IMG/VR virus record: IMGVR_UViG_3300021964_000015
From: a virus
DNA length: 64,000 nt
Direction: 5' to 3' (one strand)
A model generated the notes under the pieces. The model had not been told where the DNA came from and searched no databases. It saw only the letters and a program-made list of their open reading frames with translations. Of this stretch, positions 7,460 to 50,939 are shown in pieces; position 1 is the first letter of the stretch; every line of letters begins with the position of its first letter. The translations under genes were made by a program, and so were the position numbers.

Positions 7460-7490
7460 CGGCTTATAATACTAATAAAAGATAAATATC

Positions 7491-19905: not shown

Positions 19906-21895
19906 GTGTTCATTGATAGCTAGTTCAGATCCTGGTAGGTATGTCCCTTCAAGATTTGGTAAATAGCTCCGTGATTACAGTTAAATTTTTCAGCAATTTT
20001 TCTATAAGAAAGACCTGCTTCTTTTAAAGATTTAATTTGTTTCACGTCATCCGAAGAAAATTTTCTCAAAGATTTCTTCGGCTTTCCTTTACTGGCAAAA
20101 CCATTGTTTTTGTAACAACCGTTTTCCCAGGCTCTTGTTAAATTTTCTTGTTTGGTAACGATCTCAAGATTAGCAAGTTGATTATTTCTCTTGTTGTTAT
20201 CTTTGTGATCAATCTGTAGGGAAAAGTTACTGGTTCCATGAGAACGCAGATCTAATCCTAAAAAAGCAATTGCCATCAAGACGTGAAGATGAAATCTTTT
20301 TCTCTTTCCATCTACAAGAACTGAAATACGGTCGTAAACACTGGTGGAACTAATAGGAATCTCTAGAAAATATTCTTGATTATCGGGATCAAGTTGTTTT
20401 TCAAAAGCTTTCCCTTCTTCCGTTAAGTAAAGATTACCAAATCCTGGAACAAGTTTTGGATTCATGTTGTTTATAAACAGGTTTCCAGACTGTAGCACGC
20501 CTCAACTGAACGCTCAACGTTGTCACCTCACCAAGCAATTGATGAGTGCAAACCGGATGAATTCAGGGAAGCCCTAACGTAAAGACGAGGGTAATCCTGA
20601 GCCAAGCCAATCAAGAACGTGATTGGAAGGTGCAGAGACTACTGGGGGTAACACGATCTTGTTACGTAATACCAGATTCAGCGTCCGGCATCCCACAGGG
20701 ATGAAGAGATAGTCCACCCCTCTAAGAAACTAGAGACCAGGAGAACGATTTTCCAAAGATTTTAGGTGCGGAACTTTATCGTCCTCACCCTGCTTATGTC
20801 ACCGAAATGGCTGTGGAGCCCGTGGTTGTCCACGACTTCACTCGTCAGCCCGGTCAAACTGTTCAGTTAGATCGCTATAAGTTCTGGGGTACCCCTGGTA
20901 CGAAGGATAGCCGCGAGCGTATCTCTGACCAGACCATTGGTACTGCCAACAGCCGCAACATCACCAAGGAAAAGGTGCTTGTTGTGCTGAAAGAATACAC
21001 CGGCCCTGCTGATCCGGGTGATCCCACTCAGCCCAGCACCTTCAAAATTGCTCGTGAAACCCTGATTACCGCCCAGCGTCTGCTGCTGGATACCGGTAAC
21101 CTGAACATGTTCCACCAGAGCATTGGTTCGCTGACCCTGCTCGATGATTATCGCCGGTGGCGTGATCGTGTGTTCATTGATGAACTTGCCAAAGCAGAAG
21201 CAAACGGTGCTGCCTCCACCACACAAGGCGGTTACTACTTCGCTGGTGCCAAGGAAAAGAATGCTTCCGGTCAAATCACCTATAGCGTTGCTGAGTACCA
21301 AAGCCAAACTCAGCAGTTCCAGGTGCGTACTGACCTTCTGACCGTTGTTAAGGATCTGCGTAAGCGTAACGTTCCTACCTTCGCTGATGGTCTGTATCGT
21401 TGCATTTGCGATCCCGTCTTCATGATGCATCTGCGTCGTGATCCTGACTTCCGTGAGATCGCTCGTTACGCTGGTACCCCTGGCCAAGGCATGTACATGG
21501 GTAATCCCATGATGCCTAACAACGCCAGCTTCTACATGGGTCCCCAGGCTGGTCAAGGTTACTTCCTTGCCGGTGAGCCGGTGATGCCTACTGGTGTTCA
21601 GTTTGAAGGTGTGAAGTTCTTCGAATCGACCAACTTCCCCATCAAGAACGTCAACGCTTCGTTCGATGCTGGTTCCACCTACACTTCCCAGGAAGTTGCC
21701 CAAGGTTACTTCTTTGGTCCTCAGTCGATTGGTGTTGGTATCGGCGGCCCGAACGCTCAGGTGCTCATCAACAACAACGACGACTTCAGCCGCTTCATCA
21801 TCCTGATCTGGCAACTGTATGCTGGTTTTGAAATCCTGAACAAGGACTTCGTTACCACCGCGTTCAGCTTCATCCAAGACGATGGTACCGTCTGA
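19906..21895 (+). CDS. major capsid protein, spliced: exon 1 19906-19917, exon 2 20744-21895
   Basis: GGAGG then GTG TTC ATT GAT joins in frame to AAC GAT TTT..., giving MFIDNDFPKILGAELYRPHPAYVTEMAVEP...; strongest high-expression codon bias in the window; follows portal and scaffold. Confidence 0.88.
19920..20465 (-). mobile_element. intron-encoded HNH homing endonuclease (antisense)
   Basis: HLHVLMA...IDHKDNNKRNNQLANLE HNH motif plus C-terminal HTH; probable start MNPKL at 20465. Confidence 0.9.
20489..20517 (-). promoter_or_regulatory. sigma70-like promoter for the intron HNH
   Basis: TTGAGC-N17-TACAGT with extended TG. Confidence 0.6.
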
Positions 21896-24829: not shown

Positions 24830-25558
24830 ATGACAGAACGCGAATTACTACAAAGCTACGTTTCAAGACCTGCCATCCAGAACGCATTGCGAGTTATTCG
24901 TTTTGCGGAAGGTACTGAACGTGGCGGACCCGATTCCTATCGCGTCATGTTTGGCGGTGGCTTGGCACCTGATCTAAAGCGGCATCCAGACAAAGTTATT
25001 GATGGAGGACGCTATAAAAGTGCAGCTGCTGGTGCATACCAATTCATGCCCTTTACCTGGGAGCGACAAGCAAAAGCACTAGGCTTATCTGATTTTGGTC
25101 CACAGAATCAAGATCTTGCTGCTACACGTTTGTTGCGTAATCGCTTGATGCCTATCGGTGGTTTATCAACCCTTGAAAAAGAAGGTTTTAGCCAGCGTGT
25201 ATCCTCTGCACTAGCACCAGAATGGGCTTCTCTTCCCACCGAAAGTGGTGAGAGTTTCTACGGCCAACCTGTTAAAAAACTTGCTGATCTCCAGAAAGTT
25301 TTTGGTCAGCCACAAGAAACACAAACGTTTGGGGCCACAACTCAACTTACAAAAAAACAAGAAAGAAAATTAAAGAAACAGCTTCAAAATCCCCTGGGTT
25401 TACCTGTCAGTATCAACATTAATTTATCTGGTGAAGAAGAGGCAAAACCTGAAGCCCGTTCTTTTCTTGATACAATGAAAGGACAAGTGATGCAATCACT
25501 ATTCCAGCAACGTCAACCGTTTGGCCTACAAGAAGTATTAGGCTTGCTTGGTCAATAA
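24830..25558 (+). CDS. lambda-R-like (GH104) lytic transglycosylase, probably virion-associated
   Basis: IRFAEGT...Y.VMFGG...HP...SAAAGAYQF...TW...QDLAA...EWASLP...YGQP. Confidence 0.9.
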   Translation: MTERELLQSYVSRPAIQNALRVIRFAEGTERGGPDSYRVMFGGGLAPDLKRHPDKVIDGGRYKSAAAGAYQFMPFTWERQAKALGLSDFGPQNQDLAATRLLRNRLMPIGGLSTLEKEGFSQRVSSALAPEWASLPTESGESFYGQPVKKLADLQKVFGQPQETQTFGATTQLTKKQERKLKKQLQNPLGLPVSININLSGEEEAKPEARSFLDTMKGQVMQSLFQQRQPFGLQEVLGLLGQ

Positions 25559-25621
25559 CCTTTATAATGTCTATAAAAAGGAAGTAGAACATTGTCTTCA
25601 AGTTCTCTTGTATTTTTTGTT

Positions 25622-26212
25622 TTATTTGGGTTTTACGTGGCTACCTCCTTTGCCATCATGCCGTTCTTTTGAAAATGCTTTGTCAAGGGGCCATTCATTA
25701 TTAAGGCGTTTTTGCATTGATTGAGGAGATATTCCAACTTCTTTAGCCCAGTCGGCAATGCACATTGTCTTACCTTCAAAGGTATAAAGTCTAGTAGCAC
25801 GCTTCCCTCCTCGGTTGCGTGTCTGCTCTTTTCTTGTAGCCCATCGACAATTTTCTTTGCAGTAGTTTTTATCGTTTTCAATACGCTCTAGTTCCATCTT
25901 GGGATCTGGTTTTTTACCCATGTCTGCTAGGAACACCGTAAAGTCTTCCCAAGAAGGGTCGTAGGTTATACCACGGGCGCCATAACGTTCATAATGGGTT
26001 GTGCCAATACAATTGCAACGGTTTTTCATTGCGCACCATGAACCGTATTCTGGTGTTTTATCTCTGTTCCCACCATGTTTGAAGGAAGCGCAGTTTTTTG
26101 AGCAATAGACATACCCTCTATCTCGCAAACGCTTACGATGCCAAGCTGCGGTATTCCCTTGGCGCTCATAAAACTTGCCACAGCAAGCGCACTGAAAAAT
26201 TGTTTGTGCCAT
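25622..26212 (-). mobile_element. free-standing HNH-type homing endonuclease
   Basis: YGSWCAMKNRC...YGARGI...FLADMG...LERIENDKNYCKENCRWAT, with N-terminal Zn-finger CxxC...YCSKNC. Confidence 0.88.
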
Positions 26213-26261
26213 TAGAATAAGAGAAGTTTTCGGAGGCCCCTGTCAAATTAGCAGAGACAGG

Positions 26262-27053
26262 GTGTTTAGTCAAATATCCAGTACTAGCACGAACAAGCAA
26301 CCGCTCCTGGTTGATAGGCCGCTTTTTGATTCGGTTCGTGTAACCACTCAAACTGTTGGTAGTTCTACTGCCAATACACTTTTTGTGCAAGGTGGACAAG
26401 CACCCTCTATCCTCGTGGATATGGATGCTGCACTACAAGAAGATAACAACAGTGGTGGCGTGGTTGATTCAATTACCATTACTCGTAATGACTTCTATCG
26501 TCCTGCTGATTACACCGTAAATACAGTCACATCTGGCAGTGTAATTTCTCTTGTTAGCGGTCAAGTTGTTTTTGTTGCTGAAACAGGTGTTGTTACTCCA
26601 GCTCCTGCAAGTGGCTACGGCTATTACACCTATACAGGTGCAACTACCCTGACAGGTGTTAATACATCTTTTGAGTACTCAGGCGGATCTTCTTCAGGTT
26701 TCCTCTATAACGGTGTAGCCTGGGGAGATCAACCCAACGTTACCTTTGTCTTCTACCACACCCGTGGTACGACAACACCTATCCCTGCATCGGGTGACTA
26801 CCGTGTACTCTTTGCAAAAACAGTGCCAGCAGGTAGTGGTACTGTTGATTGCTCTGATCTCCTTCCTCAGCTTGCAACACCTGTTGTTGGCGCAGGTAAC
26901 ACAAATGGCCTTGGTCCCACTGCGCCTCTACGCAACAAAGGCATCTACCTGGAGCGTGGTGATCGCATTTACGTTGGTGTGTTCCCTGATGGTTTGAATA
27001 TTTCTGGTTACACACCAGGTGCTCACGTAACCGCACAAGGCGGATTCTTCTGA
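26262..27053 (+). CDS. structural protein (tail/nozzle-like, beta-rich); start uncertain
   Basis: T/G/V-rich 263 aa ending GIYLERGDRIYVG...AQGGFF. Confidence 0.7.
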   Translation: MFSQISSTSTNKQPLLVDRPLFDSVRVTTQTVGSSTANTLFVQGGQAPSILVDMDAALQEDNNSGGVVDSITITRNDFYRPADYTVNTVTSGSVISLVSGQVVFVAETGVVTPAPASGYGYYTYTGATTLTGVNTSFEYSGGSSSGFLYNGVAWGDQPNVTFVFYHTRGTTTPIPASGDYRVLFAKTVPAGSGTVDCSDLLPQLATPVVGAGNTNGLGPTAPLRNKGIYLERGDRIYVGVFPDGLNISGYTPGAHVTAQGGFF

Positions 27054-50905: not shown

Positions 50906-50939
50906 TACGGCCTAGTGTATTGATTTTATTCTATCAAAA

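Follow-up and report, generated by a model that had tools for sequence, protein, structure and literature searches.

The seg and mob endonuclease cassettes of bacteriophage T4 (segG, located before gene 32, and segA, segE, mobB, and mobC) have displaced host promoters and carry replacements for them, which favors retention of the cassettes (PMC2988022). T4 also contains segD, a free-standing endonuclease gene lying antisense between the capsid genes 23 and 24 (PMC2988022). In the Aeromonas phage Aeh1, mobE is reported to split nrdA into two genes without splicing (PMC3045599). For the T4 genes 38 and 25, a hairpin between the Shine-Dalgarno (SD) sequence and AUG reduces the spacing from 22 to 5 nucleotides (nt) and from 27 to 11 nt, respectively (PMC3014915). 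The locus analyzed here lies in a 64,000-nt stretch of viral DNA (IMG/VR record IMGVR_UViG_3300021964_000015; below, the window) from a cyanophage related to the Synechococcus phage S-EIVl. In this locus, a cassette with an antisense HNH-like endonuclease gene occupies the first codons of a conserved gene. We consider it very probable that the invaded gene is rescued by signals borne by the cassette, namely a TAGAAT box, the SD-like sequence GGAGG, a hairpin, and a GTG start codon, and not by any event at the RNA level.

The locus resembles the T4 seg and mob cassettes in that the cassette has displaced the signals of an essential neighbor and brought replacements, making the host gene dependent on the cassette DNA. 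Unlike in T4, where the promoters reside within the endonuclease open reading frame (ORF) and the genes are co-oriented, the endonuclease here is antisense and the replacement module lies outside its ORF, so that the ORF can decay while the module is kept. Further, the ribosome-binding site (RBS), the start codon, and the first codons are replaced here together with the promoter box, and a mutation has left ATA at the native start position. As in the case of segD, the endonuclease is oriented against the surrounding late structural genes. However, segD is intergenic and has no identified promoter of its own, whereas the gene considered here has a promoter-like pair and is inserted inside the first codons of its target. 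As with Aeh1 mobE, an insertion in a coding sequence is tolerated without splicing since new translation signals flank the endonuclease; Aeh1 needs and assembles both fragments, whereas here the upstream fragment consists of three codons and is dispensable. The locus is a variant of the known free-standing homing endonuclease theme, the new features being the joint replacement of the box, the SD sequence, the start, and the first codons, the inactivation of the native start, and a module outlasting the endonuclease ORF.

The boundaries of the insertion, the dispensability of the old start and of the pairing between the insert flanks, the conservation of GTG, and the covariation in the hairpin were all established by sequence comparison. 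The gene order at the locus is a lysozyme-like gene (24830-25558), a minus-strand ORF of 196 codons (25622-26212), and the invaded gene, a conserved plus-strand ORF of 263 codons (26262-27053). The latter encodes a beta-rich protein of the virion/lysis module, 69% identical to the S-EIVl protein AHV82236, whose gene starts with ATG and encodes M-S-S-T-S-T-G-K-Q-P-L-L; this ATG aligns with the window codon ATA at position 26274. IMG/VR contained 510 relatives of the invaded gene, and 80 relatives were compared at the insertion site. The site is intact, lacking the endonuclease, in 65 of them, which start at the position of ATA 26274 with TTG, GTG, or ATG, in most cases with a TATAAT or TAGAAT box approximately 23-25 nt upstream of the start. 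In the remaining 15, the same insertion site is occupied by the endonuclease gene or by what is left of it. When the endonuclease was used as a query, it was found lying divergently, 58-66 nt upstream of the same gene, in at least 45 loci, with endonuclease identity down to 63%; 35 distinct endonuclease-bearing contexts were compared for the start codon and relic signals. Presence or absence at a fixed site among colinear relatives, outside any intron or intein, is characteristic of a free-standing homing endonuclease cassette.

The closest endonuclease-free relative, L004, encodes a protein with 97% amino acid (aa) identity, and its flanks are 91% identical in nucleotides to those of the window, colinear and gapless. 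Its intact site reads TATAAT, AGGAAG, TTG TCT TCA ACT AGT ACA AAC. The window sequence is identical to it through TCA-A (25601), then diverges, and rejoins at ACT AGC ACG AAC (26283). Alignment against this empty site defines a cassette of approximately 682 nt inserted after codon 3 (25602-26282), with boundaries ambiguous by one A. Together with the S-EIVl comparison, this bears out the claim of an earlier reading of the locus (below, the preliminary description) that the upstream start is the native one and that the insert lies within the first codons. The elements listed there, that is, TATAAT, AGGAAG, TTG TCT TCA AGT TCT, the hairpin, the TTGACT-17-TAATTT pair, and the downstream codons, were all recovered in place.

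On the left side of the cassette, a relic of the native start is retained on the plus strand. It includes the -10 box TATAAT (25563-25568, in a context identical to that in L004), the RBS AGGAAG (25579-25584; the same sequence lies 7 nt before TTG in L004 and other endonuclease-free alleles), and TTG followed by two Ser codons (25592-25600), which match local endonuclease-free alleles. The relic start opens an ORF of 26 codons (25592-25672) that runs antisense into the 3' end of the endonuclease gene. This hydrophobic ORF, standing behind the intact native -10 box and RBS and having a similar counterpart in L008-type loci, is probably a by-product. The relic ends after TCN-A in three backgrounds and is shorter in two others.

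The native -10 relic is found in only 6 of the 35 contexts; elsewhere, the endonuclease stop codon abuts the previous gene. In both flanks, two loci from different metagenomes, L002 and L003, share 97.5-98.7% nucleotide identity with the window. Missing from them are the old RBS and start, the left pairing arm, and 190 codons of the endonuclease, of which about five remain; the full-length gene and everything from TAGAAT through GTG are present. Further stages of endonuclease decay with the same module kept are represented by L010, L013, L037, and L071, the last lacking the ATG of the endonuclease. As judged from these comparisons, the old upstream start and the flank pairing are dispensable.

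The replacement module is located downstream of the relic, on the plus strand. The -10-like box TAGAAT (26213-26218) abuts the start codon of the endonuclease gene and is predicted to act as an active promoter of the invaded gene. It is present in 33 of the 35 distinct contexts and remains in loci from which the endonuclease, or its ATG, has disappeared. The heptamer TAGAATA recurs approximately 22 nt ahead of many genes in this phage; TAGAATA or TATAATA boxes precede by about 15-27 nt the ORF starts at 7465, 9002, 11423, 15740, 16241, 23262, 33210, and 37468 on the plus strand and at 50933 and 59631 on the minus strand. These boxes look like a phage-specific -10-only promoter motif, and TAGAATAAG of the cassette appears to fit it.

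The box is followed by the SD-like sequence GGAGG (26232-26236), which is conserved in every module that has ATA or ACG where the native start lay. Further downstream is the replacement start GTG with six cassette codons (26262-26282; M F S Q I S S with the initiator), which continue in frame into codon 4 of the gene. Reading on from the in-frame stop codon at 26193, the first canonical start is GTG 26262; the codons ATA TCC AGT ACT AGC ACG AAC, beginning at 26274, are in frame with this GTG. At the native start position, the 35 contexts have ATA (17), ATG (8), TTG (6), GTG (2), and ACG (1), one being ambiguous. The in-frame GTG located 12 nt upstream is kept in all 18 contexts with ATA or ACG. 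The amino acids encoded by the four codons between GTG and ATA vary freely, which is what a tolerated extension of the N-terminus would be expected to show. We infer that GTG 26262 is the codon used, giving the predicted N-terminus M-F-S-Q-I-S-S-T-S-T-N in place of M-S-S-T-S-T-N. The comparisons are in agreement with the fallback of the preliminary description, a relic upstream start with initiation at GTG 26262 behind TAGAAT at 26213.

The 25-nt gap between GGAGG and GTG is filled by a conserved and covarying hairpin on the plus strand (26238-26262), with a stem of 7 base pairs (bp; 26238-26244 with 26256-26262) and a loop of 11 nt. The stem begins 1 nt after GGAGG, and its last paired base is the first G of GTG. 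In 25 distinct modules, 97.7% of the stem cells are paired, versus 27-55% in controls with slid partners. The G-C pair is replaced by A-U in six modules, and the U-A pair by C-G in two and by U-G in four. The U-G wobbles in these four sequences, being C-A mismatches on the minus strand, favor a role in the plus-strand leader; the L112 module represents the opposite case, its C-A mismatch corresponding to G-U on the minus strand. The hairpin is also present in the centroid fold. An SD sequence at a non-functional distance, with a conserved hairpin filling the gap, is the split initiation region known from the T4 genes 25 and 38, and the hairpin would act by shortening the distance from the SD sequence to the start, bringing GGAGG next to the start codon. 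Unlike in the T4 genes 38 and 25, the closed stem leaves about one unpaired nucleotide and includes the first base of GTG, and the effect on initiation is putative.

Other modules differ in the leader. In the ATG-type cassettes (L104, L108, L114, L116, L124, L125, and L127), a different leader is located between the endonuclease and the gene, with a hairpin that has covarying stems around a conserved A-rich loop; GGAAG or GAGGAG comes next, and ATG stands at the native position. In some TTG-type cassettes (L112, L115, and L118), GTG at the hairpin foot opens a mini-ORF of five codons whose TGA shares bases with the TTG of the gene (TTGA), an arrangement suggestive of coupling. The TTG-type L035 and L109 lack this mini-ORF.

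The 196-aa product of the minus-strand gene is likely an HNH-like protein and a predicted nuclease. It matches several PHROG families of HNH endonucleases, with E values from 1.7e-43 (phrog_3377, the best) to 1e-23, whereas no Pfam or NCBIfam family was found at threshold. A sequence search of PDB with the endonuclease gave no match. The AlphaFold 2 (AF2) model, built with 29 relatives, has a predicted local distance difference test score (pLDDT) of 73. Its best structural match in VIA-align is the HNH endonuclease PacI (Z score 6.4, residues 47-135; modest, under the level called clear), and the next one is the DNA-binding domain of I-TevI (Z score 3.2, residues 136-177; also modest); in a Foldseek search of the model against PDB nothing was found under E 0.28. 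The protein consists of an N-terminal Cys4 cluster, a central nuclease-like domain, and a C-terminal helix-turn-helix-like domain. Residues C8, C11, C37, and C41 at the N-terminus are invariant in the family, as is a motif around L108, R110, N113, N121, and N133. The first His typical of HNH is missing from this motif, so that catalysis may proceed by an unusual chemistry.

A promoter-like pair for the endonuclease gene, TTGACT-17-TAATTT (26273-26245, minus strand), overlaps codons 3-4 of the new N-terminus and the hairpin loop, which holds its -10-like hexamer. It agrees with the consensus in 8 of 12 positions and fails the threshold of the promoter scan; indeed, a sigma-70 scan of 25400-26400 found no promoter at threshold. 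The T, A, and TT positions of the -10-like hexamer are kept in the loops of the relatives. In L127, a G+C-rich hairpin with flanking runs of A and T, resembling a two-way intrinsic terminator, is located just past the endonuclease stop, in the gap between it and the preceding gene.

As for the invaded gene itself, its product has no family match in Pfam, PHROG, or NCBIfam, and the AF2 model is poor (pLDDT 51); the gene is labeled structural solely from its location in the virion/lysis module.

The distribution of sequence similarity around the cassette has the signature of homing. Over the initial 30 nt of the gene, cassette carriers share 80-93% identity, compared with 57-88% in the rest of the gene and with 47-80% for the same 30 nt in the endonuclease-free loci. 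The window and L004 are 73% identical in the first 30 nt and then 100%, 95%, and 95% identical in the next three bins, to nt 240. By this comparison, a short right-hand tract travels with the cassette, as in co-conversion, and the co-converted tract also alters the sequence adjoining the insertion point. The left junction recurring after TCN-A in three backgrounds hints at the location of the cut site. In L103, L120, and L130, the same endonuclease and leader precede far more divergent homologues (37-41% identity over the first 67-75 residues). The divergent homologue in L103 still begins with the codons for I-S-S-T-S-T-N, which suggests that the endonuclease and the leader were transferred across distant phages.

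Taken as a sequence of events, the cassette would spread when the endonuclease, predicted to cut the empty site, cleaves an intact start region and the break is repaired from a carrier. The newcomer would supply the gene with a box of the TAGAATA motif, an SD sequence with its hairpin, and an in-frame GTG, and its six encoded codons would join codon 4 of the gene. The displaced native signals would remain only where the left recombination endpoint spared them, and there they may drive the 26-codon by-product ORF and antisense transcription of the endonuclease gene.

Several observations weigh against this reading. With the stem closed, only about one unpaired nucleotide is left between GGAGG and GTG and the first G of the start codon is paired; the minimum free energy fold pairs a part of the SD sequence as well. 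The hairpin could therefore inhibit or time initiation instead of helping it. The ATG-type cassettes place the SD sequence after a different hairpin, so that bridging from SD to start is not general to these spacers. TAGAAT shows no overall enrichment in the window, and it also forms the 6 nt immediately upstream of the endonuclease start on the opposite strand, which may contribute to its conservation. The prediction of an endonuclease comes from the PHROG matches, with no Pfam match to HNH and a best fold Z score of only 6.4. Finally, the best duplex between the insert flanks in the window (-17.2 kcal/mol) has p 0.0075 against shuffles and p 0.034 against equally spaced genomic windows.

In one alternative explanation, the hairpin and its flanks serve the endonuclease, as promoter architecture or as control in its 5' untranslated region, while the gene is translated from read-through of the upstream operon and TAGAAT has no promoter role. 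Read-through is plausible, as the upstream genes in the window are all on the same plus strand. The overlap of the -35-like and -10-like hexamers with the hairpin and its loop, the retention of the -10-like positions in the loop, and the C-A mismatch of L112, which becomes G-U on the minus strand, are consistent with such a role. However, the hairpin, GGAGG, and TAGAAT persist in L002, L037, and L071 despite the deletion of the endonuclease or the loss of its ATG; the U-G wobbles of four sequences would be C-A mismatches on the minus strand; and TAGAATA precedes many starts in this phage by approximately 22 nt. We regard control of the endonuclease as an unlikely function of these elements.

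Another alternative accepts the replacement module and places initiation at ATA 26274, or at another non-canonical codon, instead of GTG 26262. This ATA sits exactly at the start position of the relatives. With the hairpin closed, it would be separated from GGAGG by about 12 unpaired nucleotides, which resembles the TTG-type cassettes with starts 11-13 nt past the hairpin, and the stem occludes the first G of GTG. Yet L101 and L102 have ACG in place of ATA and keep GTG, and GTG is invariant in all 18 ATA or ACG contexts, whereas some TTG-type modules with a start of their own have lost it or hold it out of frame. Moreover, ATA is a very poor initiator in bacteria. Initiation at ATA or at another non-canonical codon thus seems quite unlikely, and GTG 26262 is the start that we retain.

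The preliminary description had favored neutralization of the insert at the RNA level: the flanks would pair, the endonuclease would be looped out, and the start at 25592 would be joined to codon 4 by splicing, trans-assisted splicing, or bypass, or via a bridged RBS. Precise removal of 25602-26282 would indeed restore the conserved M-S-S-T-S-T-N, the flank duplex of the window is nominally significant against shuffles, and the capsid-gene region of the same genome harbors a true group I intron together with an antisense endonuclease. This intron (20465-20736, plus strand; Rfam RF00028, 91 bits) served as a positive control for the Rfam search. It adjoins the antisense ORF 19920-20498, which matches Pfam HNH_3 and has a helix-turn-helix. 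As at the intron, the endonuclease in the invaded gene is antisense and interrupts a late gene after a few codons, and removal of the insert would restore the reading frame; unlike at the intron, there is no detectable ribozyme core, the 5' "exon" is dispensable in the relatives, and the two endonucleases are unrelated in sequence. The suggestion that the endonuclease is a second copy of that of the capsid-region intron was rejected, as the two proteins in the window are unrelated.

The Rfam search of 25400-26500, run both at the gathering threshold and at E values up to 10, revealed no intron or other RNA family, and its covariance model detected no group I catalytic core (P3-P9) there, in agreement with the preliminary description that there is no ribozyme; 591 of the 682 nt are antisense coding sequence. 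Of the flank pairing, the complementarity itself stands: the left arm (25600-25609) and the right arm (26219-26228) form an inverted repeat of 10 nt at 90%, nominally significant in the window only and ranking 21st of 29 inverted repeats in 900 nt. In L008, L014, and L005, where the relic is present, the sequence of the left arm differs and the duplex is no stronger than expected by chance (p approximately 0.45-0.5). The upstream start, the required 5' exon of any intron, is missing in 29 of the 35 contexts and deleted in L002 and L003, and the gene stays intact in these loci, as it does in L010, L037, and L071, which lack the upstream start or the left arm. Together, these comparisons show the pairing to be neither conserved nor required, the outcome that the preliminary description had named as refuting its reading. 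Programmed bypass, as in T4 gene 60, would have to cross 682 nt, from a take-off region missing in most carriers. The T4 gene 60 bypass is 50 nt long, and we know of no precedent for a ribosome hop of 682 nt. Bypass and trans-splicing were rejected, given that the upstream start is dispensable in the relatives. The proposed AACAT/GTGTT closure was likewise discarded: its left half is the native start context, found in endonuclease-free alleles as well, and it amounts to only 5 bp. Since most relatives that carry the cassette lack the upstream start and the left arm, and the near-isogenic L002 and L003 have deleted both, looping-out and the other RNA-level routes are almost certainly not how the gene is rescued.

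The reading preferred here, rescue by the cassette-borne start module, can be extended to a "self-patching" element, a proposal that is tentative and, taken as a whole, rather unlikely. In it, the portable module would enable the cassette to settle at the start of an essential gene and would be retained by the host once the endonuclease had decayed; the end of the relic at TCN-A would mark the cleavage point; and the flank pairing of the window, which includes GGAGG, would sequester the new RBS on read-through transcripts. If so, the gene would be translated only from transcripts initiated at TAGAAT. The T4 I-TevI gene and gene e, with their timing, are a parallel for such transcript-dependent translation.

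For annotation, these results place the start of the gene at GTG 26262 and not at 25592, and duplicated "exon-like" starts beside endonucleases need not imply splicing. The relatives form a natural series: the empty site, the full cassette with the relic start, the cassette without the relic, and the form with a decayed endonuclease and the module kept. The series bears on a question of mobile-element biology, namely how an essential gene can accommodate a homing endonuclease, within it or at its edge, when neither a ribozyme nor an intein is present. The answer for this locus would be that the element brings a substitute promoter box, RBS, and start codon, on which the host then depends. In the capsid-gene region of the same genome, a true group I intron is used for the same problem, so that the two solutions may be compared side by side.

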